The translations under genes and the position numbers were made by a program. This document shows positions 1 to 10,992 of a DNA stretch of 10,992 nucleotides, in pieces (positions within the stretch are counted from its first letter, which is position 1; every line of letters starts with the position of its first letter). The DNA is from a virus (taxonomy: Duplodnaviria > Heunggongvirae > Uroviricota > Caudoviricetes): the IMG/VR virus record IMGVR_UViG_2698536573_000008; one strand, 5' to 3'. The notes beneath the pieces were generated by a model. It had not been told where the DNA came from and made no database searches. It was given only the letters and a program-made list of their open reading frames with translations.

Positions 1-186
1 CTACCTGCGCGGCGCTGGCTTCTTCCACTGGTAGGCAGGTGCTCGCATCATTTCGCGGAACCTGTCGCGCCGGGCTATATCGGCATTAACTGAGCGTTCT
101 ATCTCCCGTTGATCTGCCTGTGTAAGCTGGTGGCCTCCGTGCTCAAGTTTGGCGATGGTCAATAAGGCTATTTCGCGTGGTGTCAT
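1..186 (-). CDS. small hypothetical protein (61 aa)
   Basis: Complete minus-strand ORF: ATG at 186-184, TAG stop at 3-1 (window edge). RBS-like AGAGGG about 8 nt upstream of the ATG. No recognisable motif. Confidence 0.4.
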   Translation of the reverse strand: MTPREIALLTIAKLEHGGHQLTQADQREIERSVNADIARRDRFREMMRAPAYQWKKPAPRR

Positions 187-247
187 ACGTCATACCCTCT
201 GGAAGGATGAAACACGCCCGGATTAAATTTCATTTTTCGCGGGTATG

Positions 248-306
248 AAAAAACGATGGGGCGGGCAGTCCGGAAGACGTCAGGCCGCAGGGATTTGACC
301 CGCCCC
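248..306 (-). terminator. possible intrinsic terminator or structured element downstream of the PerC-like gene
   Basis: GC-rich inverted repeat GGGGCGGG (258-265) / CCCGCCCC (299-306). On the minus strand it is followed 4 nt later by T6 (plus-strand AAAAAA at 248-253). The 33-nt loop is atypically large, so this may instead be a protein-binding palindrome. Confidence 0.3.
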
Positions 307-320
307 TCCCCACTGGTGGT

Positions 321-602
321 CTACCTTTGCCTATTGCCGCCATTTAACCGGAAGGCGTTACCGTTCGGTTGCGCTATCCCCATGCGGTGTTGCGTTTCGG
401 TAACAGCTTTATGCAGGTCGCCAAAGTCCTCAGCCTTCACGGGCGGGCGCTTCACGTTCTCAAGACACGTTTCACGGCGGCGCTTTATCCATTCCCGATC
501 ATCGTCCTCGGTGCATAACAGCATGACTTCCATCCATCGCGCTGCGGCGCGTCGGTACAGCCCTTTTGCTTCCAGATCCTCGGCTTTACTGTCGTTTACC
601 AT
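321..602 (-). CDS. PerC-family transcriptional regulator-like protein (93 aa)
   Basis: ATG at 602-600, TAG at 323-321. Motifs LEAKGLYRRAAARWMEVML and REWIKRRRETCL resemble the conserved core of PerC/Pch-type small regulators. GGGGGAG RBS about 6 nt upstream. Confidence 0.7.
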   Translation of the reverse strand: MVNDSKAEDLEAKGLYRRAAARWMEVMLLCTEDDDREWIKRRRETCLENVKRPPVKAEDFGDLHKAVTETQHRMGIAQPNGNAFRLNGGNRQR

Positions 603-667
603 GTTTATCTCCCCCAGAATGGCGTTTCATCGTCGAATGGTGGGCGTTGGTCAAAATCATCAGGGGT

Positions 668-673
668 ATTATA
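668..673 (-). promoter_or_regulatory. candidate -10 element (TATAAT on minus strand) upstream of the PerC-like gene
   Basis: Perfect TATAAT hexamer on the minus strand (plus 668-673 attata), about 65 nt upstream of the ATG at 602. No good -35, so it could be activator-dependent. Sequence-only guess. Confidence 0.2.
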
Positions 674-815
674 TAACTCCCATCCAGGCGCGGATTGTGT
701 TGCGTGACCTCCTGTGTGCCTGTAGCCTGGCTGATTCCGGTAATACTGCGGAGTTAGGTCTACCGGCATAGCTTACCCGTGGAGAAATGAATCATCGAAT
801 GAGTTTGGTCGGGAG

Positions 816-1487
816 TTATTCCACCAGCAAAAATGGCGTTGCCCGGTCTATGACGTTGATGCCAATTAACGAGCTAACATTTCGACCATTCACAATGCTA
901 TCCCGTTCAAGCAAATGCGCTATTTTTTCTACTTCATACCAGTATTGAGCCATGAGGGCTTTGGTCTTTTCAACGAGTTTAGAAAGCATTAACTCCCTGT
1001 TAATTTGCTTATCTGTAGCGCAGATTAAATCGAGCATGTCATTTACGTTAGCCATGTCATAGCGATGAGGTAGCGAATACTTTTTGTTGAAAATATCGTT
1101 GTTTTCGTAAAGGGCTTCGCTTACTGGTCCGGCGAGGGATACAAAAGCGGCCTTTTTTGCATCGCGCTTTATACCATCCGCATAGTAACGTATGAAAGGG
1201 ATAACTTTACCATTCTGCCCAACTACACCAGATTTACTATCCCGCAAACGCCCGAGATCGTGGCTGTGAATTATGCTGTGTTTAACAACGCCCAAACACT
1301 TGGCCTCATGTACATGTTCGCCAGCAACGTAACCGTATTCATCCATAACGGCGATAACCTGTATATCTAAGCGAATAAGCCATGCAGCTACTGCATGTCC
1401 CGCTTCGTGGAATGCTACACATCGTTTACCATCACCTATCCAGTTATAGAACATTTCATGCTCATATATCTGGTGAATGGCGCCCAT
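816..1487 (-). CDS. standalone FtsH-like (peptidase M41-type) zinc metallopeptidase domain protein (223 aa)
   Basis: ATG at 1487-1485, TAA at 818-816. HEAGH zinc-binding motif at residues 27-31 in an FtsH-like context (CVAFHEAGHAVAAWL). Downstream MANVNDM resembles the FtsH third-ligand Asp region, and the C-terminal helical region is collinear with the FtsH protease domain. No AAA+ ATPase module. Sampled 60-nt blocks are 37-45% GC, below the backbone. Confidence 0.75.
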   Translation of the reverse strand: MGAIHQIYEHEMFYNWIGDGKRCVAFHEAGHAVAAWLIRLDIQVIAVMDEYGYVAGEHVHEAKCLGVVKHSIIHSHDLGRLRDSKSGVVGQNGKVIPFIRYYADGIKRDAKKAAFVSLAGPVSEALYENNDIFNKKYSLPHRYDMANVNDMLDLICATDKQINRELMLSKLVEKTKALMAQYWYEVEKIAHLLERDSIVNGRNVSSLIGINVIDRATPFLLVE

Positions 1488-1660
1488 TACGCGCCCTCGC
1501 TTGCCAGTGAGGCCAGCGCCTTATCCATTAATCCCCGAGCAATTTCGTGGATCGTTGGCGCAACTCCTACCTCTGATTTTTTACGCTGCTCCTCCTGAAT
1601 TTTCTTTATCGCTTCCATTTGCTTCTCACTTATCAATACCGGCTTTACTGAAATAGCCAT
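1487..1660 (-). CDS. small protein (57 aa) translationally coupled to the M41-like peptidase gene
   Basis: ATG at 1660-1658 (MAISVKPVLISEKQ...) preceded by AAGGGG. Its stop overlaps the peptidase start as TAATG at 1489-1485. The ORF-track start at 1687 is TTG and less likely. Lys/Glu-rich helical sequence, possibly a small DNA-binding or antitoxin-like partner. Confidence 0.55.
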   Translation of the reverse strand: MAISVKPVLISEKQMEAIKKIQEEQRKKSEVGVAPTIHEIARGLMDKALASLASEGA

Positions 1661-1692
1661 AACGCCCCTTAGAACTGTATAAAACAACAGTT

Positions 1693-1698
1693 ATTATA
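1693..1698 (-). promoter_or_regulatory. candidate -10 element (perfect TATAAT on minus strand) for the small-protein/peptidase operon
   Basis: Minus-strand TATAAT (plus 1693-1698) about 33 nt upstream of the ATG at 1660, in an AT-rich leader. -35 is poor. Confidence 0.25.
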
Positions 1699-1795
1699 GT
1701 TTCGCAAATAGCAATATTTATCACCGTAATTGCAAAATATGAAACAAATAGCACAAAAAATGCCGCCGCTCAGTAGCTGCTGGCATCGTTCTGTG

Positions 1796-1814
1796 TGTCA
1801 AGTTTTGACAAGTT
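1796..1814. promoter_or_regulatory. bipartite 19-nt motif TGTCAAGTTTTGACAAGTT (copy 1 of 2 in window)
   Basis: Two 10-bp-phased half-sites. Minus-strand reading AACTTGTCAAAACTTGACA contains a consensus TTGACA. A 17/19-identical copy lies at 7052-7070. Confidence 0.4.
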
Positions 1815-1855
1815 TCGTTTTAAGCTCACCCCCCCATAGAATCTTTTTGGGGGTG

Positions 1856-2110
1856 TAATATCCCTACCAATCCCTACTAACTGGCTCATGCCACGAATGG
1901 CAAGGCTTTCAGACTGGTAGGCATTCAATTTTGTTGCCCTACATAACCCTACTTATCCCTACTAAATCACTTCAACGGCATTTTACTGCCTGTTTTATTT
2001 GGTAGGGATATGTAGGGATAAGTAGGGATAAAAATATATATCCCTACCTAGTTTAAAGCCTTGCTACGTCTGGCCTCGTCTCGTTTTTAGTAGGGCAGTA
2101 GGGATAAGTG
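1856..2110. repeat. iteron array (GTAGGGATA / TATCCCTAC), putative replication origin or crr-like primase-binding region
   Basis: Eleven copies of core CCCTAC/GTAGGG in both orientations: 1861-1868, 1871-1878, 1936-1943, 1947-1953, 1956-1963, 2041-2048 (plus orientation); 2002-2010, 2012-2020, 2022-2030, 2090-2097, 2098-2106 (reverse). Three exact GTAGGGATA copies in tandem at 10-bp spacing. Perfect 9-bp inverted repeat GTAGGGATA-aaaatata-TATCCCTAC (2022-2047) around an A/T spacer. Array ends 15 bp from the primase stop codon. Confidence 0.7.
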
Positions 2111-2124
2111 CCGCCGTAAAAGTT

Positions 2125-4566
2125 TCAATCATCACTCTGCCCGCTCTCCACACCGTAAGCGCGTGGCATGAACTCCTCAGCCTTCTCGTTATAGCCAACG
2201 TTGGTTTGCGCTCTGCCGTTAATGCTTCTCGTCAGGTAGCTGGCTCGGTACTCTTTTGCTGCTGATTTTATGGCGCGTGAAAACTTATTGACGGAAAGCG
2301 GTTTACCCAAACCGTGATACTCCATAAACGCCAGATAAAGATGATAAAGATACGTCCTCGGCTCTGGCTGGCCTGCCCATGTACCTCCGCCCATCATCAT
2401 GCCTTTGGGTTCGTTCATGAAAAAAAGCGCCGCACACATATCGACAACCGGATCCGTGCCGCTTTTAACCTCTAGCGCCTCCTGCGAATCGCGCTGCTCT
2501 AGTAATAGTGCCTTTGCTTTGTTCTGGTCGGCAAAGGTGGTTAGCAGGTGGCGGATAATCACCGGGATTTCTCGCCTGATTTTTGCGGTTAAATCCGGGT
2601 CTTTGTCTGCGTCTGATACCGGGTTATTAAACGGGAATATCACGCGGCGGCGGGCAATGCCCCCGTTTCGCTCCGTGAATGTCATCGGCTCGTTATTGGT
2701 TGCCATAACAACGGCATTTATCACGGTTGTGAACTGCTTTTCATATTTCCCATCAATCTCTACCGGATCGCCGCCCGTAATGGCTTTAATCCCCGCCCCC
2801 TCTCCAACATAGCGGGTCTGGTCAGGCATAATAATCAGGCTTTTTCCTACGAACTGCGCCCGTCCCCGTGCGGTGTCCAGCGTCATCATGCTACCGCTGG
2901 CGGTGTTGTGTTCACCTGCCAGCGTGGTTGCTATGCTGCTGAATACGGATTTCCCACTGCCGCCCTCGCCAGTTATCTCAATGAATAGCTGCCAGTCGTG
3001 ACGCTTCGCCAGCACCATAAACAAGGCTGCTTTGATACGCTCGGCCTTATGATGGTCGCCAGCCGTTGCATGATTCAGCCAACGGGTAAAATTGGGGGCG
3101 CTGGTGGTAATATTTTCCCCCAGCGCTGGCGGGGTGTAGGTGATCCCATTGTGGTTCATCAGCCAGTTACCCGGCGAGTGGGCGGAAAACGTCTGCGTAG
3201 CGAGGTCATAAACGCCGTTATCAAAACCAATCAGATCCCCGCTCCGCTCACCAATTACCGGTATTTGCAGCTTCATGGTTGCGACAACCGATTTAATCCC
3301 CTTTTCGGTGTAGTGGGCTTCGTGCTCGTCGAAAATTGCCACCATAACCCTTTCTAATTCGCTGTCTGGTAGCTTCACCCATACGCCAGATTCGTAGCAG
3401 TAAACAGTGCCACTATCAGGGTTAACCGCCAACATATCCCATCGAGATGAAAGCAACCGCGCTTTCTGGCTGGCTGCCATTTGTGCAATATCTCCGACAT
3501 CGGCTTTACGGCGGGATTTACCGCCCTCAATGGCTTGCAATCGCGGTTTCACGGCTTCCCCTTGAATCTGGTACATCGAATCGTTAAACGCAGCCGTAGC
3601 GACTTCCAGCCCGTTTTGCTGGCGGTAGTCGTCCCAGTCGGCTTTGTAGTCTGTCGGCGGCAGCGCCACCCAGCCAGCCACGGATAAGGCGGCTTTCTCT
3701 GCGGCATCTTTGCCCGTGTTCGCCTGGTCGTCCTGCTGGTGGTCGTTATCTGCGGCAATGATAATCTGCGTGGCTGGATATATCCGGCGCATCACTTCGG
3801 CAACGGGTAGCAGGTTGCCCGCGTCAATTGCTGCCACTGCCAGCGCGTCCGGGCGCATCAGGTGAACTGAAAGGGCCGTCGCCAGCCCCTCGGCAATTAA
3901 AACGCTCTGCGGCGATTCTGGCGCGTTTACGGCGTGATATGCCCCGCGCTTTGCTGAACCTGTCAGGAGTCGTTTATCTCCCTGCGGCGTGATGGTCTGC
4001 GCCGCCACTACTGCGCCGGATTCATCCACCAGCGGCAGGAGTAGCGAACCATCAGACATAACCGGGTAATTAAACCCGGTCAGCCCTTTTGATTGCAGGT
4101 AATCAGATTCGCCCTGTGTGACACTCTGGCGCATTCCGGCATACAGACGGGCAAACGTAGCCCTTCGCTGCTCTGCATCCTCTGCTGCCTGTTTCTGGCG
4201 CTCCTGCTCACGCTGCTGGCGGTCAGCTTCCAGTTGCTCTCTTCTATGGCTCGCTGCCACCGGGTCGGTTTCCGCTGCCCGGTAATCAATACCCAGCACA
4301 TCAGCGGCAAGCTGTGCCGCCTCCGTAGTGTCGCAGTTGTTCACCTTCTTAATCAGGTCTAAACCGTCACCAGCGCCACACTGATTGCAGATAAAGCTAC
4401 CGCGCCCGTTGTCGTCGAATCTGAAACGGTCTTTTCCACCACATGCAGGGCATGGAGAATGGCGGCGCGATGAATCAGGCACGTCGATAGACAATCCAGC
4501 CAGCACATAAGGCCAGCGCCCGGCGGCGGCACTGGTCACTTCGCGGATAAGGTCGATATTACGCAT
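2125..4566 (-). CDS. P4 alpha-like DNA primase / helicase (about 813 aa)
   Basis: Long minus ORF. Best start is ATG at 4566 preceded by AGGAGG; the ORF-track start at 4623 is GTG. N-terminal Cys-rich zinc-binding motif (CPACGG...CNQCG), TOPRIM-like acidic motifs (IAEGLATA, AADNDHQQDD), Walker A GEGGSGKS in the C-terminal helicase-like region. TGA at 2127-2125. Confidence 0.93.
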   Translation of the reverse strand: MRNIDLIREVTSAAAGRWPYVLAGLSIDVPDSSRRHSPCPACGGKDRFRFDDNGRGSFICNQCGAGDGLDLIKKVNNCDTTEAAQLAADVLGIDYRAAETDPVAASHRREQLEADRQQREQERQKQAAEDAEQRRATFARLYAGMRQSVTQGESDYLQSKGLTGFNYPVMSDGSLLLPLVDESGAVVAAQTITPQGDKRLLTGSAKRGAYHAVNAPESPQSVLIAEGLATALSVHLMRPDALAVAAIDAGNLLPVAEVMRRIYPATQIIIAADNDHQQDDQANTGKDAAEKAALSVAGWVALPPTDYKADWDDYRQQNGLEVATAAFNDSMYQIQGEAVKPRLQAIEGGKSRRKADVGDIAQMAASQKARLLSSRWDMLAVNPDSGTVYCYESGVWVKLPDSELERVMVAIFDEHEAHYTEKGIKSVVATMKLQIPVIGERSGDLIGFDNGVYDLATQTFSAHSPGNWLMNHNGITYTPPALGENITTSAPNFTRWLNHATAGDHHKAERIKAALFMVLAKRHDWQLFIEITGEGGSGKSVFSSIATTLAGEHNTASGSMMTLDTARGRAQFVGKSLIIMPDQTRYVGEGAGIKAITGGDPVEIDGKYEKQFTTVINAVVMATNNEPMTFTERNGGIARRRVIFPFNNPVSDADKDPDLTAKIRREIPVIIRHLLTTFADQNKAKALLLEQRDSQEALEVKSGTDPVVDMCAALFFMNEPKGMMMGGGTWAGQPEPRTYLYHLYLAFMEYHGLGKPLSVNKFSRAIKSAAKEYRASYLTRSINGRAQTNVGYNEKAEEFMPRAYGVESGQSDD

Positions 4567-4900
4567 GGTTGCCTCCTGCCACGGTCGCGCCCATGTCTTT
4601 AACCATGCTTTGCCATATCTCACGCCCGACGTCAGTCAATCCGTCATTAGTGACGCAACGCTCAAGAAGCTCGACCCCCACGGTTTCCCACTGCGGGTAG
4701 GACACTTTCATGGCTGCCAGTGTGTAGCTATCGATCAGGCTGCGAACGCCTTTTACTCCATTGACGATTTCCACACGGACGGCGAGGCCGTCCGCATCAA
4801 CCATGAAATAGTCACCGCCGCTGGTGGAGGTAATGTGGTTATACAGTGCCGACGCATACTTATTCGCCAGCGCATTCAGTCTGAAATTTTTAGTAATCAT
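4559..4900 (-). CDS. hypothetical protein (113 aa), upstream of and overlapping the primase start
   Basis: ATG at 4900-4898 with GGGGG RBS. TAA at 4561-4559 overlaps the primase ATG (ATGCGTAA). No recognisable motif. Confidence 0.6.
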   Translation of the reverse strand: MITKNFRLNALANKYASALYNHITSTSGGDYFMVDADGLAVRVEIVNGVKGVRSLIDSYTLAAMKVSYPQWETVGVELLERCVTNDGLTDVGREIWQSMVKDMGATVAGGNHA

Positions 4901-4909
4901 GTCGCCCCC

Positions 4910-5536
4910 TCAGTGCGGCAGCGGCATTTCAGGCCAGCCGTTTTCATCCAGTTCAGCTATAAAGCTGTTGTGAAGTTCAGCAAGCGTTTCACGCCCGAAC
5001 GGGGTCAACTCGCCGCGCTCCGTGTCGATCATGGCCTGATAAAAAACAATGGCGTTCGCTGTTCCCTGCTCAATGCCGTAGCGCTCAACCATTGCGCCCT
5101 CCATGTTGTTAGCCATCGCCAGACGTTCCGCGAACGGGTAAACCACAATCCCCGCCGTGCCATTGGAGTAAATCGCCACCTGCGATGAAGTGCCGTCAGA
5201 CTCAGTTACCGTGGTTGTGCCGTTTTCGCGCTTCATCTCAGAAATGAACGTCGCAGCAATCAGCCAGCGCCACATAGTGACGTTATGCTGCGCGGTGAAG
5301 TCGAACCAGCCACGCGCCCCGCCATCAGCAACGGCAAAATGAATGGCGTATCCGATATCTGGCTTATCGTCGTACTCTCCGGCGTCAAGGCCGTTCACGG
5401 CGCTCTCGTAGCTGATAAGAGCAACCTGCTCATATCCCCCGGCATCATTGCGGGTCATGATATTGACGCCGTGCGGTGTGGCTTCGGCGTGTAATAAGTC
5501 GGCATTTCCCGATTTAATGGTCGGTGCGTTGCTCAT
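4910..5536 (-). CDS. hypothetical protein (208 aa)
   Basis: ATG at 5536-5534, TGA at 4912-4910. Start overlaps the upstream stop (ATGA). Protein-like composition, no motif recognised. Confidence 0.65.
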   Translation of the reverse strand: MSNAPTIKSGNADLLHAEATPHGVNIMTRNDAGGYEQVALISYESAVNGLDAGEYDDKPDIGYAIHFAVADGGARGWFDFTAQHNVTMWRWLIAATFISEMKRENGTTTVTESDGTSSQVAIYSNGTAGIVVYPFAERLAMANNMEGAMVERYGIEQGTANAIVFYQAMIDTERGELTPFGRETLAELHNSFIAELDENGWPEMPLPH

Positions 5537-5796
5537 GCGCTGCCCTCCGCATCAATTCTGGCTATATCGACAATCGTCAGGACTTTACTCAGCCAGCAAT
5601 ACGCGATGGCTGCTTGCTCAACTTCGAGGAGTGGTAATAAATCGGTCATAACGTGAGCCAGCCCATTGCGGGCGCGGGTCATGCGTTCTGCTGTTCGGTC
5701 CGCCAGCGTAAAATCATCCGGGTATGCTTCTTTACGAGATAGCATCGATTCGGCTTCCAGATCTGCCGGGTGGCGATAGATGGTATTTATGTTCAT
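5533..5796 (-). CDS. hypothetical protein (87 aa)
   Basis: ATG at 5796-5794, stop at 5535-5533. ATGA overlaps at both ends link it to its neighbours. Confidence 0.55.
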   Translation of the reverse strand: MNINTIYRHPADLEAESMLSRKEAYPDDFTLADRTAERMTRARNGLAHVMTDLLPLLEVEQAAIAYCWLSKVLTIVDIARIDAEGSA

Positions 5797-6107
5797 TTGC
5801 CCGCCCTCCCTTTGGCTTCTTTTTCACTGATTGAGCGCAAGAATGCGGCGTTTGCAGCGCTATCGTTCAGCGCCAGCGCAACTTCTCCGATATGTCCCAG
5901 CATTGCGCCTAATCTGTACATATCAGCCTTAGCGCTTTCCTCCGGGTAGCCATCGCTACCAGCCGCCCAGAACATGAGGCTACCAATGGCACTTACGCCC
6001 AGCATTAAATCATCCACGGCATCACTGGCGCAGCTCTCAATTCCTTTCAGATCATCAGGTGTACAACCATCAAATTTGCAGGACACTAAATCGTTATACA
6101 TGCTCAT
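5793..6107 (-). CDS. hypothetical protein (104 aa)
   Basis: ATG at 6107-6105, stop at 5795-5793. ATGA overlaps at both ends. Confidence 0.55.
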   Translation of the reverse strand: MSMYNDLVSCKFDGCTPDDLKGIESCASDAVDDLMLGVSAIGSLMFWAAGSDGYPEESAKADMYRLGAMLGHIGEVALALNDSAANAAFLRSISEKEAKGRAGK

Positions 6108-6283
6108 GCCGCCACCTCACGAACGCGGGTAATCTGGATGTGGGAAAGGCGTTCATTTCTGGCCTGATTTAGCGCCTCAGCTTTGGCGCTGATCGCGCTG
6201 CGGGCGTCAACGATATAAACGAACTCGACTAATTCGCCGCTCCGGGCGGTGGCGCATCCTGCAACACGGAAGTAATTAAGCAT
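6104..6283 (-). CDS. hypothetical small protein (59 aa)
   Basis: ATG at 6283-6281 preceded by GGGGG RBS (MLNYFRVAGC...). The longer track ORF 6104..6520 has an implausible N-terminal extension overlapping the adjacent gene in another frame. Confidence 0.45.
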   Translation of the reverse strand: MLNYFRVAGCATARSGELVEFVYIVDARSAISAKAEALNQARNERLSHIQITRVREVAA

Positions 6284-7187
6284 GTGCGCCCCCTGTGCGA
6301 ATACGTCCGGCAAAAAAGCAAACGTGATCCCGCGCCAGAATGCGGCGGGCTTCCTGCTCAGTCTCTGCGGCGATATGGTGAATTTTGACGGTAATTGTCG
6401 GCATATCGCGGCGAACTGCTGCGATAATCCAGATAAATTGCGGTTTTTGGGTAGGGGTAGTAGCCAGCATAGCGGCAGCCTCTGATTCATGGTTTTGAGA
6501 ACCACCACCGGAAACGCCAATTTCGCTGGTGGTGAACTGTACAGGGTTGGCGTAACCGGGAATCAGAGAAACCGGCGCGGATTGCTCCGCCCCCATACAG
6601 TCCACCATTGAACAGGTGTAACTGCGCGGCACAAAAAAACACGCATGGCGCGTGTTGTGCGCTCTGATAATTACCGGGACGCCAATCCCGACACCAGATT
6701 TTGCTGGTGCGCTATAACCATAAACCGGGTTGGCGATAGTCGGCAAGCCCTTTTTTATGGACTCCAGAAACTCACCTTCGCGCGTGCGCGTACTGTTGCA
6801 TAAATTCCCTGCATCTAGTGGTGATGTCAGAAAAATCTTCCCGCCTCGTGTAGTGATGATGGGAAAATCTTCCTCGCGTAGTGACCCCCAATAAATCTTC
6901 GTGCGCGTACTGGTCTCGAAACTCTCCTCGTCACCACGACGAGAAAATGAGGAGCTGGCATTAGCTGGCACTGTTATGCCAGCTTCGCATTCATGCGCGT
7001 GCGTACTTGTCCCGAAAACACCAAGATTTGTAAAGATCTGGCGGTGGCAAATGTCAGGTTTTGACAGGTTCCAAACGTCGCTATTTGTCGCAATCTGGCG
7101 GCGGGCTGCTTTGCTCCAGACGTTAACATTTGCATACATCAGGCCAGCCAGGGGAAAGGCTTTATTCTGGATGGCGGCATTAAGCAT
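6276..7187 (-). CDS. hypothetical protein, start uncertain (303 codons if started at 7187)
   Basis: C-terminal half (about 6279-6770) has protein-like sequence. The part encoded by about 6772-7105 is densely repetitive DNA and gives low-complexity S/T/R/G-rich translation. The ATG at 7187 overlaps the antirepressor stop (ATGCTTAA) with a GGGGG RBS, but the true start may be internal or non-ATG. Confidence 0.4.
   Translation of the reverse strand: MLNAAIQNKAFPLAGLMYANVNVWSKAARRQIATNSDVWNLSKPDICHRQIFTNLGVFGTSTHAHECEAGITVPANASSSFSRRGDEESFETSTRTKIYWGSLREEDFPIITTRGGKIFLTSPLDAGNLCNSTRTREGEFLESIKKGLPTIANPVYGYSAPAKSGVGIGVPVIIRAHNTRHACFFVPRSYTCSMVDCMGAEQSAPVSLIPGYANPVQFTTSEIGVSGGGSQNHESEAAAMLATTPTQKPQFIWIIAAVRRDMPTITVKIHHIAAETEQEARRILARDHVCFFAGRIRTGGAHA
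6772..6945. repeat. degenerate tandem repeat array, period about 26-32 bp, 5-7 units
   Basis: Units begin near 6772, 6803, 6833, 6865, 6893, 6919 with shared AAAT(C)TTC(C) plus GTAGTGA/GTACTG cores. Exact 13-mer CGTGCGCGTACTG at 6783-6795 and 6900-6912, with a variant GCGCGTGCGTACTTG near 6994-7008. Confidence 0.6.
6953..6984. promoter_or_regulatory. operator-like cluster: AGCTGGCA x2 direct plus inverted copy TGCCAGCT
   Basis: AGCTGGCA at 6953-6960 and 6963-6970; TGCCAGCT at 6977-6984. Copies 2 and 3 form a perfect 8-bp inverted repeat with a 6-nt spacer. Confidence 0.4.
7052..7070. promoter_or_regulatory. bipartite 19-nt motif TGTCAGGTTTTGACAGGTT (copy 2 of 2)
   Basis: 17/19 identical to 1796-1814; the two differences fall at the same relative position in each half-site. 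Flanked by a direct repeat ATTTGT-N4-ATCTGGCGG (7026-7044 and 7083-7101). Confidence 0.4.
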
Positions 7188-8013
7188 GATTAGCCCCCAG
7201 ATGTTTAGCTAACCAGCGCTGAGAGAGGCGGATTAGCTCGGCTTTACGCAGGTCATATCCCATACCCATATCAATTAACGTGATATTGGTGCTTTCGAGA
7301 TAGGCGAGGTGTTCAAGCTGTGCTGCGTTCATGCTGTCCCGTGGTTCGCCAGTAATGCCATTTGCCTGCGCCCACTGCTTCGCCGTCATGCCACCCAGCA
7401 CGATACGGGCGATCATGTTGCTCTCGTTGCTGTAGTGGCGCTGCTGCGTCGTTTTACCCAGCTCGGCACGGGCCATATTCAGCGCATCGCACATCGGCTT
7501 AAAGTTGTTTGCGGCACTGATACGGGCTTTTAGCTGGCGACGATAGCGGGCGGCGATTTCAGGCACGCTACGCTGTAATTCTTCCTCGCACTGGATGAAA
7601 TAACGACGGATAGCGCGACCCTGATCATTGCGTTCGATCATTGCCAGTTCTTTCGCCATTCCGACACTTAACAGATAGTCTTTGCCGGGTCTGCCAGACT
7701 GCTTAATCTTGCTGTAAGCCGCGCCATTCGGGCTTTTCCCCAGATTTGGGGAAATTGTTTTATGGACTGAGTAATCGTGCCCAATGGTGAAGTCATATTC
7801 AGAGATGCGATCAGTGATCCATGTAGAGAAGTCTTTTCCCACGCCCAACGCTTTGTGTAACGCTTTTGCGCTAACAATATTGGTTTCACGCCCACCGATA
7901 TGACCAGGAATAACCGGGACAATTGTGGCAAATTCATTACCGTTAATTGTTCCCTGATAGGCGTTCAGATGAGGGGCGGCCTCAGAAATTAATCTGCTTT
8001 TTTCGATGTTCAT
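7180..8013 (-). CDS. phage antirepressor-like protein with AntA/Rha-type N-terminal domain (277 aa)
   Basis: ATG at 8013-8011, TAA at 7182-7180. N-terminal SAKALHKALGVGKDFSTWITDRISEYDFTIGHDY ... GRPGKDYLLSVGMAKELAMIE resembles the AntA/Rha antirepressor domain. C-terminal half unassigned. Confidence 0.65.
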   Translation of the reverse strand: MNIEKSRLISEAAPHLNAYQGTINGNEFATIVPVIPGHIGGRETNIVSAKALHKALGVGKDFSTWITDRISEYDFTIGHDYSVHKTISPNLGKSPNGAAYSKIKQSGRPGKDYLLSVGMAKELAMIERNDQGRAIRRYFIQCEEELQRSVPEIAARYRRQLKARISAANNFKPMCDALNMARAELGKTTQQRHYSNESNMIARIVLGGMTAKQWAQANGITGEPRDSMNAAQLEHLAYLESTNITLIDMGMGYDLRKAELIRLSQRWLAKHLGANHA

Positions 8014-8025
8014 TTTCAGTCTCCG

Positions 8026-8460
8026 TTAGGCGGCGGTGAGATTGTCCGGGTATAGGTTGAGAATGTCGGCAATTTCAGGCTGAGAAAGTCCCTGATAGCC
8101 GCCAGCGTCGGCGTTATGGTTCACAAGCCGAATAACTTTTAGAACGTCACCGCGCCCGGTAAAGCGATAGCGTAAATGTGACCCTATCCCGTCGGGGTTC
8201 TTTTCGTCTATACGCTCAAGCTGAATATCAAGCCTGCGCTCTAACTCGCTGGCGTAGTTCCTTCCAGATGAAAGGCGGCAATATCGCAGAATGTCGTTTT
8301 CTGTCCATCCCTCTACGCCAGTACGCAGCATATAGACGCGGGCGCGGTGTTTCTTTGGGGTTCGCTTAGGTACTTGTACCGGGCTGGTGGTCGGCGTAAT
8401 ATCAGACGTGCGAATATCTGAGTTAGCCGCCTGCTGTACGGGGCGGTTTTTCTTTTTCAT
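8026..8460 (-). CDS. hypothetical protein (144 aa), basic N-terminus
   Basis: ATG at 8460-8458 overlapping the AlpA stop (TAATG). Lys/Arg/Pro-rich N-terminal region. No motif recognised. Confidence 0.6.
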   Translation of the reverse strand: MKKKNRPVQQAANSDIRTSDITPTTSPVQVPKRTPKKHRARVYMLRTGVEGWTENDILRYCRLSSGRNYASELERRLDIQLERIDEKNPDGIGSHLRYRFTGRGDVLKVIRLVNHNADAGGYQGLSQPEIADILNLYPDNLTAA

Positions 8461-8663
8461 TACGCCACCTTTCCCCGGCGCTCCGCCAGCCAGTTATTAA
8501 TCTCTACCGCATCAAAGGCGGTAATCTTCTCCCCCAGCTTTACCGGGCGCGGTAGCGAGCCGCTGCGAACTTTGCGATCAATGGTTGAAACACTAACGCC
8601 CAGCAATTCAGCAAGGCGGAAGCGTCTGATATAGCCTTTTGTAGGGATAGTGTCGATGTTCAT
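8460..8663 (-). CDS. alpA: AlpA-family phage transcriptional regulator / excisionase-like HTH protein (67 aa)
   Basis: ATG at 8663-8661, TAA at 8462-8460. HTH region LAELLGVSVSTIDRKVRSGSLPRPVKLGEKITAFDAVEINNWL matches the AlpA/excisionase-family pattern. Position after int is typical of P4-like and PICI elements. Confidence 0.8.
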   Translation of the reverse strand: MNIDTIPTKGYIRRFRLAELLGVSVSTIDRKVRSGSLPRPVKLGEKITAFDAVEINNWLAERRGKVA

Positions 8664-8735
8664 GATTCCCGTAACCTCTTAGCGGTAGTTGTTGCTTCGT
8701 TACGAGAAATCTAGCTGTATAGATATACAATGAAA

Positions 8736-8759
8736 AGGTACTGTAATTTTGCAGTACCT
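8736..8759 (-). terminator. hairpin, possible intrinsic terminator after the 316-aa gene (or operator upstream of alpA)
   Basis: Perfect 8-bp inverted repeat AGGTACTG (8736-8743) / CAGTACCT (8752-8759) with an 8-nt loop, followed on the minus strand by a U-rich tract (TTTTCATTGTAT). Lies in the 106-bp gap between the 316-aa gene stop and the alpA start. Confidence 0.35.
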
Positions 8760-8769
8760 CTATAGCAAG

Positions 8770-9720
8770 TTAACTATCCACTTTGCCATTTGCCGCAGAT
8801 CGCAGCTGTTTAAGAATTACATCTTCATTAGTTATCATAAGTGGTGGAACTTCGTCTAAATGACGAACAAGACAGTCACGCCACTTCTCAGGGCTTATTT
8901 CTTTCCTTACTCCCCTGCATTCATTTGGATACTTACTAAGTATATAAATTGCAGATTTTAATAGTTTCTCCCTATTGACTGCGTACCGTTCGGCACGTTT
9001 ATTAACTTTTAGCGTATTTATATCATTGGATAACTTGTTTGCGGGTGGTTTGTGCATGGGTCTGTCATAAATATATTTTCCTCCATTTATAAGAAGATTG
9101 TATTCATAGTCAGTTATATACATTTTATTTCGGCTTATTTCATACCAGCCGTCAATATAAAAAGCTCCGATTTCATAATTATTCGATTTGCTAAACTCGT
9201 CACATCTCGGAGGCGTCAGTTCGCATACGGAGATCTCCCAATCATCCCATTCTGATAGCTCCCGCTCATCGTTATCTATGAACGCAGACGGAATTGCTAA
9301 TAGACCGTTCCATCTTTCGATATCTCTTTCATCCTTCCCAACATTGTATCGCTCTATAACTGAGAAATGTTCTGATTTGTATGAAAACCTCATAAAATAC
9401 ATATGGTTATCGCTATTTTTATAATCAAGCGGTGATAAGCCATATGATTCGAGATTATCTGCCTCATTGCTCAGATTAAGAAGATAATTCTCATGTGCTG
9501 CTTTTGTATCTATATGAAAAATACTATCTGTTTCAACTTTAAGTAATTCTGGGTCGGCATCTTCATTTTTGGGGTAATGGTAAAACAATTCAATAGGTGG
9601 AATTTTTATACATATTTCTAAAACCCCAATTGCTGCATAGTGTATTAAATCGGATACTTCACATCCGGCCAGTTTGGCTGCTTTATCCAAAGAATAATAT
9701 TTATGCGCAGGTAATTTCAT
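8770..9720 (-). CDS. AT-rich orphan protein (316 aa), possible N-terminal HTH; candidate accessory or anti-phage cargo
   Basis: ATG at 9720-9718 (GAGAGGAAAG upstream), TAA at 8772-8770. Hand-counted GC about 23-37% in sampled 60-nt blocks versus about 60% in the primase. N-terminal YYSLDKAAKLAGCEVSDLIHYAAIGVL resembles an excisionase/MerR-type HTH. The rest is acidic and Tyr/Trp-rich with no catalytic motif recognised. Starts 18 nt after the integrase stop. Confidence 0.8.
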   Translation of the reverse strand: MKLPAHKYYSLDKAAKLAGCEVSDLIHYAAIGVLEICIKIPPIELFYHYPKNEDADPELLKVETDSIFHIDTKAAHENYLLNLSNEADNLESYGLSPLDYKNSDNHMYFMRFSYKSEHFSVIERYNVGKDERDIERWNGLLAIPSAFIDNDERELSEWDDWEISVCELTPPRCDEFSKSNNYEIGAFYIDGWYEISRNKMYITDYEYNLLINGGKYIYDRPMHKPPANKLSNDINTLKVNKRAERYAVNREKLLKSAIYILSKYPNECRGVRKEISPEKWRDCLVRHLDEVPPLMITNEDVILKQLRSAANGKVDS

Positions 9721-9738
9721 TATGAATCTTTCCTCTCA

Positions 9739-10992
9739 TCATGCTCTGATTGGCGTTACGTTGTAGTCTTTTCCGCTTTCCAGTGCCACCAGCAAATCAC
9801 ACCACTGCGCCAGCGCCGCTTTACGCTCATCAAAATACTGGTGACGGTTATAGATACCTTCCACGCCTTTAATTTTGTGATTAAGGCATCTTTCTGCGAC
9901 TACCGGATCAACGCCCAGCGCTGCTAAATGAGTACGTGCGGTGCGTCGGAAGTCGTGAATCGTGAAATTAGGCACATCAGGCATTTCAGCGCGAACCTTA
10001 GCCAGTGCTACGGGTAAAGTGCTTTCCTGAATATGTGGGATCATTCTGTTTTGCATCTTCCTGGCTGGAAGCACCCATGCGCTGTTGCATGAGAACGTTT
10101 TAAGCTCTCTCAGCCATTCGACGGCTGGCGGTGCTAATGGGATGTCTATAGCGTCGCCGTTTTTGCTGCGTTCCTCTGGTAAATGCCATACGGCTTTATC
10201 AAAATCGAACTCCTCCCAGCGGGCGGCGCATAACTCCATTTTGCGGACGCATAACGCTAACAGTAATTTGAACGTGATTTCGTTCTGACGGCTGAATCCC
10301 TTAGCCGTGCGCATAGCCTGAAACAGTCGGATTAGTTCGCCACGTGTTAACCAGCGGTCGCGGGAAACTTCTTTCCCTCCGGCGTCTGCCACCTCAAAGG
10401 CTGAACACGGGTTAATCTCCAGTGCGTGCCGCTTAATGCCGTAGTCAAATATGCGGCGTGTCCAGCGCAGAACGTCCGTTGCTATGGTCGGCGCTCCACG
10501 GTCAACAATACTTTTCAGCATGTCGTCGATATGGCGCGGCTTCACGTCCTCCACCTTCATGCTGCCAATGCATGGGTTTATATCTTTGTCGATACGGCGG
10601 CGGAGTATATCGGGGTGCTTCCAGCGCGGGAGGATCTGACGCTCAAAGTATTCAGCGGCAAGCTCTGAAACGCGCATAGCGTTCTTCTCTGCTTCCATCT
10701 TCGCCAGTGCTTCGGTTTTGCGCTTCTGCTTCTCTCCTGCAACGTCATAGCCCAGCGCAACGCGAGCCGATAGCTCTTTGGCTGTCTCTCTGGCCTTTGA
10801 TAGTGATAGCTCGGCATATGAGCCAATCAGCATGGCGCGGGGTTTCCCTGCGAATTTATAGCGGAATCGCCAGACGGGGGTCTGGTAGTTTTCGCGGTAT
10901 GAAAGATAAAGCCCGTTACCGTCAGAGCGTCCCTCGAATCGCTCCCCGGCCTTTATCCATGCGCGGATCTGCATGTCTGTGAGTTTTGGCAT
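9739..10992 (-). CDS. int: P4-type tyrosine integrase (417 aa)
   Basis: ATG at 10992-10990 (window edge), TGA at 9741-9739. N-terminal arm-binding-type motifs (DGNGLYLSY, WRFRYKFAGKPR, LSLSKARE). C-terminal catalytic region HDFRRTARTHL with tyrosine in GIYNRHQY. Confidence 0.93.
   Translation of the reverse strand: MPKLTDMQIRAWIKAGERFEGRSDGNGLYLSYRENYQTPVWRFRYKFAGKPRAMLIGSYAELSLSKARETAKELSARVALGYDVAGEKQKRKTEALAKMEAEKNAMRVSELAAEYFERQILPRWKHPDILRRRIDKDINPCIGSMKVEDVKPRHIDDMLKSIVDRGAPTIATDVLRWTRRIFDYGIKRHALEINPCSAFEVADAGGKEVSRDRWLTRGELIRLFQAMRTAKGFSRQNEITFKLLLALCVRKMELCAARWEEFDFDKAVWHLPEERSKNGDAIDIPLAPPAVEWLRELKTFSCNSAWVLPARKMQNRMIPHIQESTLPVALAKVRAEMPDVPNFTIHDFRRTARTHLAALGVDPVVAERCLNHKIKGVEGIYNRHQYFDERKAALAQWCDLLVALESGKDYNVTPIRA

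Follow-up and report, generated by a model that had tools for sequence, protein, structure and literature searches.

What kind of mobile element is carried by IMG/VR record IMGVR_UViG_2698536573_000008, a stretch of 10,992 nucleotides (hereafter the window) assigned to the Caudoviricetes, in which the genes run in one direction with many overlapping start and stop codons? An initial annotation had read it as a unidirectional satellite backbone of the type of phage P4 and the phage-inducible chromosomal islands (PICIs), with pervasive translational coupling and with its packaging module to the left of the window. Our analysis indicates that the window is probably the main body of a 13.3-kb integrated satellite resembling EcCIMP1 of Escherichia coli, a "Type C PICI" with a P4-type core for regulation and replication. 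The satellite backbone and its single orientation therefore hold, whereas the packaging and size-redirection module does not lie where it had been placed.

The window is 100% identical to a segment of the chromosome of E. coli O6:H16 strain M9682-C1 (NZ_CP024275.1, 3999070-4010061, reverse strand). Matches of at least 99% identity were found in three further genomes, and some part of the window is contained in 2,161 of 5,426 complete E. coli genomes (~40%). The analysis covered the M9682-C1 locus plus 15 kb to either side (locus L001, 41 kb). Its chromosomal neighbours are yicC, rph and pyrE on the integrase side and dinD, yicG and ligB on the other side, and alignment to the empty site of strain K-12 defined the island as a 13,275-bp insertion directly after the yicC stop codon (L001 12907-26181). 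The integrase-side end of the island contributes TTACTCGATATTCTGAATCTG, restoring the last yicC codons, and a 10-bp attachment-site (att) repeat, TCTGAATCTG, is present at both ends. Since a direct-repeat search for a long att sequence gave only an 11-mer, at chance level, the att junction was taken from the K-12 empty site. GTACACC, the type of arm site annotated around P4 attP, is repeated on both arms: the left arm has two copies and the other arm four, which lie upstream of int. As had been proposed, the att sites lie outside the window on both sides, one ~200 bp to the right and the other ~2.1 kb to the left, and the flanking sequence contains a short att duplication at the island ends. 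Beyond the window, the island extends for ~190 bp to the right, where the int promoter and att are located, and for 2.1 kb to the left. This left segment, the expected place of the packaging module, holds only a pRiA4b-ORF3-family gene, a divergently transcribed gene for a 119-aa hypothetical protein (hyp119) and a dinD paralogue. A literature search for an island at yicC/dinD found none.

EcCIMP1 is a PICI of E. coli MP1 (Pick, Stadel and Raivio, ISME J 2025, PMC11773190) that encodes an integrase, AlpA, an antirepressor, an "Ash family protein", a primase and PerC. It excises only with the P22-like helper phage Kapi1, requires int and alpA, has no recognisable capsid or terminase genes and was classed by its authors as a "Type C" PICI (PMC11773190). 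Taking as EcCIMP1-like any island with the conserved antirepressor, Ash region, primase and common gene order, we found all of these in the window. Comparison with the EcCIMP1 locus from MP1 (L003) revealed the same order of int, alpA, orf143/144, antA, the Ash/C4/Icd region, small open reading frames (ORFs), primase, a late or cargo zone, PerC, orf61, pRiA4b-ORF3 and hyp119, with protein identities of 62-100% for 12 genes of the backbone and end module (AntA 91%, orf144 78%, Icd 84%, orf87 62%, orf208 64%, orf113 94%, orf57 90%, PerC 91% to EcCIMP1_025, orf61 and pRiA4b-ORF3 100%, hyp119 95%, and 71% for the C-terminal 348 aa of the primase). A LexA-like box before the post-primase cassette is also common to both, and neither island has capsid or terminase genes. 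The two differ in several parts. The N-terminal half of the primase is P4-alpha-like in the window and of the TOPRIM/DUF927 type in EcCIMP1; the integrases share only 28% and the AlpA proteins 36% identity, which fits the different att sites (the 3' end of yicC here, a tRNA-Thr gene in EcCIMP1). The late zone carries orf57 and an M41-like protease gene here and genes for P22-like ejection proteins in EcCIMP1, the second alpA gene of EcCIMP1 (alpA_1) is absent here, the C4 RNA loops differ and with them the immunity specificity, and the island is 13.3 kb long against 20 kb for EcCIMP1. Three sister islands at yicC (L010, L011 and L012) have different genes both in the int-alpA gap and after the primase, indicating that these two positions are cargo slots.

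The core of the island is also collinear with the left operon of P4 (NC_001609), in which Vis/AlpA is followed by eta with the promoter PLE, seqA, the CI RNA, seqC and nested kil, then by small ORFs with 8-nt overlaps, the alpha primase, iterons (crr), attP and int. In its circular form, the island would likewise read from alpA through the primase and iterons to att and int, and its RNA immunity logic is that of P4. Unlike P4, it has two extra genes (orf144 and antA) between alpA and eta and a different iteron sequence, and a single gene, orf316, replaces the P4 segment from cII to sid (gop, beta, cos, psu, delta, sid, ori); sid, delta, psu, epsilon, cos and gop/beta/cII are all lacking.

This shared logic rests on an RNA module lying between antA and the small ORFs. 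The Rfam models for C4 and isrK match the window well above their gathering scores (Table 1) and match P4 in the same order, at 8420-8507 and 8615-8692; the same two models detect relatives of CI and seqA in Gram-negative PICIs (PMC10111431). The C4 RNA has two loops, a' (CUCUGAUUC, 6568-6560) and b' (ACGCCAA, 6553-6547), which are perfect complements, over 9 bp and 7 bp, of the a2 and b2 sites downstream, and also perfect complements of the a1 (AUCAGAG, 6668-6662) and b1 (UUGGCGU, 6685-6679) sites in the isrK/seqA-type leader upstream. The leader has a terminator-like hairpin with a U run at 6656-6638. The a2 site overlaps the ribosome-binding site of a nested kil/icd gene (ATG at 6470), whose product is 38% identical to the kil part of P4 and which, from this arrangement, would be the first gene under RNA immunity control. 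Ten elements were compared, namely this island, EcCIMP1, P4, one lambdoid prophage and six other islands. Among them, the loop and both target sets differ and yet change together, and compensatory changes support 14 of the 28 consensus pairs in the C4 fold (10 sequences). In a comparison of 2,972 E. coli genomes, the conservation of this region centres on 6503-6711, which corresponds to the RNA genes and not to the whole ORF that covers them. In 10 loci, P4 among them, the internal PLE-like promoter keeps both its hexamers and its distance to the isrK 5' end. The pairing geometry can be read directly from these sites, while the translation block, the Rho-dependent termination and the readthrough by eta are presumed from P4 and P1.

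Related modules occur in P1/P7 immI (c4 RNA-icd-ant) and Gifsy-1 (isrK-anrP), where the C4 RNA likewise lies between a1/b1 and a2/b2 and an Icd-like gene has its ribosome-binding site covered by a2. The antirepressor genes of P1 and of lambdoid prophages stand downstream of the RNA module, whereas antA stands upstream of it here and thus, by position, escapes C4 control; the C4 target in the island is the replication operon, as in P4. One such prophage in strain FORC_044 (L007) has an isrK and C4 pair at 1522-1720, in the unannotated interval that separates ninE from two antirepressor genes. The RNA module is thus common to satellites and lambdoid prophages and controls different downstream genes in them. 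In sister island L012, the C4 RNA (9753-9840) has the a' loop UCCUGUAAC in place of CUCUGAUUC, with both targets changed to match; as the backbone of L012 is ~97% identical to that of the window, immunity specificities appear to be exchanged between close relatives.

The whole module is covered by an eta-like ORF of 303 codons, which spans the internal promoter, both RNA genes and the second target site, and has kil/icd nested at its end. RefSeq names it "Icd-like", and a tblastn search with it matched the P4 'cI/ash ORF' region and vis. The corresponding P4 frame is open for 217 codons and begins at ATGATGATG, overlapping the vis stop codon. According to the section of PMC10111431 that summarises Forti et al. 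1999, P4 eta starts upstream of the constitutive PLE and is translationally coupled to the AlpA homologue; the same section describes that eta includes seqA and the CI RNA, that kil is nested at its end, and that the translation of eta prevents termination, so that transcripts from the late promoter read through. We considered whether the 303-aa ORF is an annotation over-call across the C4 and isrK genes, which would make its junction with antA spurious, and rejected this as P4 has the same nested eta/kil arrangement. The long frame is also kept in L010 and L011. The 'small-ORF chain' of the initial annotation does exist, but the regulatory core hidden in it, consisting of the RNA module, the eta-like ORF and the nested Icd/Kil gene, had been overlooked. 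Weak Rfam matches to HrrF, the petD intron and aceE-II fell well short of the gathering scores and were disregarded.

The Pfam Phage_ASH match in this ORF (residues 157-250; window 6438-6719) coincides with the internal promoter, isrK/seqA and C4/CI. Hence part or more of the 'Ash protein' family signal is likely translated conserved RNA and promoter sequence. An exact 13-mer, CAGTACGCGCACG, occurs twice on the minus strand (6783-6795 and 6900-6912) and brackets three loose units of ~30 nt, AAGATTT...TCAC(T/C)AC...; these repeats (6771-6912) fall within the island-specific N-terminus of the ORF, close upstream of the internal promoter, and may be protein-binding sites.

All seven overlap strings listed by the initial annotation are present at their coordinates on the minus strand, each joining the stop codon of one ORF with the start codon of the next, and a Shine-Dalgarno-like purine-rich run (GGAGG, GAGG or GGGGG) lies 5-11 nt 5' of each. 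An eighth junction, absent from that list, was found at 6276-6283, where ATGCTTAA combines the eta/kil stop with the orf59 start, so that 8 of the 15 gene junctions in the window overlap. Four large intergenic gaps of 106, 464, 213 and 134 nt contain regulatory DNA. Strings such as ATGA are common, and the non-random part is their position at ORF borders with a ribosome-binding site. Similar junctions are found in P4 (ATGA at vis/eta, GTGCGTAA at kil/epsilon and ATGTTTGA at epsilon/orf151) and in EcCIMP1 (8 overlaps), which indicates that this junction style is a trait of the lineage and not peculiar to the window. The single gene orientation was also corroborated, since all 16 coding sequences annotated by RefSeq in the window of the identical genome are on the minus strand; a Pfam search with the seven longest plus-strand ORFs in the window gave zero matches. 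The proposed gene order is correct, Pfam supports the integrase, AlpA, AntA, P4-family primase and PerC, and the iterons are real.

Together, these features outline a long operon of alpA, orf144, antA, the eta-like ORF with the RNA module, five small ORFs, the primase and the iterons, for which analogy with P4, P1 and EcCIMP1 suggests a mode of action. In the quiescent state, the internal promoter would make the C4/CI RNA, the loops of which would pair with a2/b2 over the kil/icd ribosome-binding site, blocking translation and causing an early stop of transcription, so that no primase is made. A helper phage would induce alpA, and transcripts would then start upstream; the ATGCTTAA overlap could let ribosomes that terminate on antA begin anew on the eta-like ORF and continue translating across the RNA module. 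This translation would, as with P4 eta, suppress termination, and the chain of overlapping ORFs would carry expression to the primase. The island would then excise, replicate from the iterons and, as it has no packaging genes of its own, be packaged by helper functions alone. The 'pervasive translational coupling' may accordingly be understood, by analogy, as part of the switch and as inherited from the P4 lineage.

How the island would be packaged bears on its class. P4 Sid, Delta, Psu and Epsilon gave no BLASTP match among all island proteins (Epsilon at E<0.01), and neither these nor any capsid, terminase (terS) or Rpp family were detected in any island protein by Pfam or PHROGs or in the annotation of the whole insertion. 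The 19-mer GGCGAGGCGGGGAAAGCAC of the P2/P4-type cos site, which P2-dependent packaging requires but which SatelliteFinder does not count as a component, has no match with up to three mismatches in the 41 kb, and matches to lambda cosN are at chance level only. No phage structural or lysis genes occur in the 13.3-kb insertion. In the scheme of SatelliteFinder (PMC10085698), P4-like satellites have seven core components, at least five of them even in Type C, and PICIs have five. The island has three of the seven P4-like components (integrase, AlpA/Vis and alpha primase), below any P4-like type, and three of the five PICI components (integrase, adjacent AlpA and primase), lacking capsid morphogenesis and a small terminase, Rpp or own cos; the latter count makes it a 'Type C' PICI in this scheme. 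An AntA-type antirepressor may fill the role of epsilon in P4, by analogy. The size of 10-15 kb, the specific att site and the iteron origin downstream of the primase are PICI traits as well. The island also fits the four-zone PICI layout of integration, Bro and immunity RNAs, replication and late genes (PMC10111431). With the EcCICFT073-type and other Gram-negative PICIs (Fillol-Salom et al. 2018, PMC6092414), it shares co-oriented int and alpA at one end, a Bro/antirepressor zone with immunity RNAs, the primase followed by iterons, a variable late zone, PerC alleles, a size of 10-15 kb and the lack of phage structural and lysis genes. It differs from the EcCICFT073 type in having no lambda-type cos above chance and no Rpp or capsid-morphogenesis genes.

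Several observations weigh against a functional satellite of this kind. The relative EcCIMP1 is transduced very inefficiently (PMC11773190). The left att core is degenerate, with 10 of ~21 nt left and an 11-nt gap relative to the expected junction, and in the three sister islands the left copy is longer yet degenerate, with strain-specific small deletions; excision may therefore be impaired. The regulatory model meets objections of its own. The long eta-like frame, intact here, is broken in EcCIMP1 (L003) and L012, and in L004 and L005 the long annotated frame passes the icd region in another reading frame. Since not all relatives keep the long frame, translating through the module may be dispensable. 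Eta is coupled here to antA and not to alpA, with orf144 and antA in between, and the PLE-like promoter is a weak consensus match (8/12), below the strict scan threshold. Promoter-like sites were fewer in the window than in shuffled sequence by a sigma-70 consensus scan, which detected neither of the two promoters proposed here. The att defects, together with the lack of a P2/P4-type cos and of any packaging gene, could instead mark a grounded remnant. On this view, the island descends from a satellite, or from a P4-like element through loss of sid-delta-psu-cos, has become incapable of excision and packaging, and stays in the chromosome only for its cargo (PerC, the protease cassette and orf316). 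The authors of SatelliteFinder left >6,000 three-component Type C PICI elements unclassified as possibly defective (PMC10085698). We consider a remnant unlikely, because all 16 annotated genes in the window are intact, the integrase aligns across the catalytic region of P4 Int, the primase is full-length relative to alpha, and the RNA loops and targets are still perfectly matched. Moreover, islands of this architecture are found elsewhere in combination with unrelated integrases, copies at least 99% identical occur in strains of different origin, and EcCIMP1 is mobile although it also lacks packaging genes.

P4 itself can live as a plasmid. A helper-independent integrative element, mobilisable or defensive, that multiplies by P4-like plasmid replication and spreads through conjugative mobilisation or generalised transduction without hijacking a specific phage would be conceivable; the left-end pRiA4b ORF-3-family protein is named after a plasmid, and the variable cargo slots resemble those of defence islands. 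We regard this as very improbable, given that Pfam and PHROGs found no relaxase, oriT-associated or conjugation gene, that PADLOC found no defence-system match for the cargo, and that the AlpA-centred layout is that of helper-responsive elements. Membership in a conventional prophage with structural genes outside the window, for which only the phage-like regulators AntA, Icd-like and AlpA could speak, is refuted by the flanks to the point of being negligible, as ordinary core chromosome borders the insertion on both sides. An EcCIMP1-like satellite with a P4 core thus stays our preferred reading. The kind is known and its mechanism is largely predictable from P4; new here are the att site, the cargo combination and an immunity specificity of its own. 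The coordinates of all features are collected in Table 1.

Table 1. Features of the island, in window coordinates unless a locus is named
Feature	Position	Strand	Details
orf61	1..186	-	first gene of the conserved left-end module, which continues beyond the window
PerC-family regulator, 93 aa	321..602	-	Pfam PerC 104 bits
FtsH-type (M41) protease-domain-only protein, 223 aa	816-1487	-	HEAGH motif
TAATG overlap junction	1485-1489	-	
orf57	1487-1660	-	stop overlaps start of the M41-like protease gene
Candidate SOS-controlled promoter	1673..1698	-	perfect -10 TATAAT 1698-1693 abutting LexA-like box AACTGTATAAAACAACAGTT 1673-1692
Predicted replication origin	1862..2103	.	11x CCCTAC/GTAGGG, 10-bp phase
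Alpha-type primase-helicase, 813 aa	2125..4566	-	Pfam Zn_Ribbon_Prim, Toprim_3, D5_N, DUF5906, Pox_D5; TIGR01613
ATGCGTAA overlap junction	4559-4566	-	
orf113	4559-4900	-	
orf208	4910-5536	-	
ATGA overlap junction	5533-5536	-	
orf87	5533-5796	-	
ATGA overlap junction	5793-5796	-	
orf104	5793-6107	-	
ATGA overlap junction	6104-6107	-	
orf59	6104-6283	-	
Nested Kil/Icd-like gene, 64 aa	6276..6470	-	NCBIfam NF033153 Icd-like 74.5 bits (cut-off 25)
Eta-like ORF, 303 codons	6276..7187	-	start overlaps antA stop with ATGCTTAA
seqC / a2-b2 target set	6480..6520	-	b2 UUGGCGU 6520-6514; a2 GAAUCAGAG 6488-6480
C4 / P4 CI-type immunity RNA	6525..6612	-	Rfam C4 76.7 bits (gathering 45)
isrK/seqA-type leader	6634..6710	-	Rfam isrK 81.1 bits (gathering 50); c4-a1b1 45.1 bits
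PLE-like constitutive promoter, predicted	6717..6746	-	-35 TTGCCG 6746-6741; -10 TATGGT 6722-6717; +1 ~6710
ATGCTTAA overlap junction	7180-7187	-	antA stop / eta-like ORF start
AntA/AntB-type antirepressor, 277 aa	7180..8013	-	Pfam AntA 77 bits; PHROG anti-repressor Ant E 1e-37
orf144	8026..8460	-	conserved backbone protein; start overlaps alpA stop (TAATG)
TAATG overlap junction	8458-8462	-	
AlpA/Vis-family regulator and excisionase, 67 aa	8460..8663	-	Pfam Phage_AlpA
orf316	8770..9720	-	~36% GC; cargo, variable int-alpA gap
Tyrosine integrase, 417 aa	9739..10992	-	Pfam Arm-DNA-bind_3, Phage_int_M, Phage_integrase
Left att core copies	L001 12906-12916; L010, L011, L012 ~2265-2290		

In the replication module, the primase is 39% identical to P4 alpha over 812 aa (E 6e-172). 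The iteron hexamers following it, of which only two copies occur in the rest of the window, form direct and inverted sets around an AT-rich spacer (~1963-2001) at the position of crr in P4. The origins of Gram-negative PICIs have two iteron sets flanking an AT-rich spacer (PMC6092414), the same layout as in the window.

The integrase has a P4-type arm-binding N-terminus and is 26% identical to P4 Int over 402 aa. AlpA, 34% identical to P4 Vis/ORF88, belongs to the family whose members are the master activators in EcCICFT073 and EcCIMP1 (PMC11773190). AntA is a candidate helper-derepression protein; the sole PADLOC match was a weak one of its C-terminus to PDC-S22. The five small ORFs from orf59 to orf113 (4559..6283) have overlapping or near-abutting junctions, belong to PHROG families of unknown function and show no similarity to P4 epsilon, orf151 or orf106. 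PDB sequence searches with orf144 and orf208 gave non-significant matches only. An Rfam 'int-alpA RNA' (RF02996) lies just downstream of int in L010 (13472-13538) and L011 (13490-13555); it is absent from the window, where int and orf316 are 18 nt apart.

At the left end, the module of orf61, pRiA4b-ORF3 and hyp119 has 97% DNA identity with EcCIMP1. Each of four strains has its own small deletion in the left att copy (TCTGAATCTG, TTACTCATTGAATCTG, TTACTCAATTGAATCTG and TTACTGAATCTG), with a constant right copy, which may be decay of the excision substrate. The island dinD paralogue (L001 13027-13851, with a BRO-N domain) has 85% protein and 76% DNA identity to the adjoining host dinD and is absent from the sister islands at yicC. 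Capture from a neighbouring chromosome, through imprecise excision or recombination, may explain its presence.

Among the cargo, orf316 belongs to a small enterobacterial family with no known domain, and its model has only a weak N-terminal helix-turn-helix of the MerR/Xis type. The M41-like protein gave a weak Pfam M41 match at HEXXH and a phmmer match to the protease domain of AFG3L2 (residues 299-478, E 0.0034), and is a member of a narrow enterobacterial family named 'peptidase M41 family protein'. EcCIMP1_025, the PerC protein of EcCIMP1, repressed LEE1 in Citrobacter rodentium (PMC11773190). A 54-codon ORF on the minus strand (605-769), ending 2 nt before the perC start, is missing from the RefSeq annotation, gave no match in databases and lacks conservation in EcCIMP1. 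It probably does not represent a gene.

The LexA-like box, an exact match to CTGT-N8-ACAG, is located just upstream of the orf57/M41 cassette. It is identical in EcCIMP1 (L003 ~11141-11160), where it precedes the ejection-protein cassette, and in L011 (~5336-5355), and it is not mentioned in the EcCIMP1 paper (PMC11773190). As a lead only, this motif suggests that the late/cargo zone could be under SOS control. It is doubtful, with perhaps a modest chance, that an SOS-controlled promoter drives the post-primase zone as a DNA-damage arm independent of AlpA. If so, the SOS arm would express a small protein and an FtsH-type protease-domain protein that could act on helper or host proteins, serving as a module for interference, defence or helper derepression. 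On the same doubtful reading, the position of antA before the immunity RNA and its coupling to the eta-like ORF would be an undescribed rewiring of the P4 switch.

For annotation, the locus teaches that a Pfam "Ash" match is likely in part the translation of a promoter and two RNA genes, and that a long ORF over such RNAs should be read as the P4 eta/kil arrangement rather than as an ordinary protein or an over-call. How elements of this kind are packaged is a question already recognised in the literature, to which this island adds no new one. For the family, the island is a clean example that at least one large group of Type C PICIs is coherent: its members join a core of P4-type immunity and replication genes to integrases, immunity specificities and cargo slots that can be exchanged, and they lack packaging genes.

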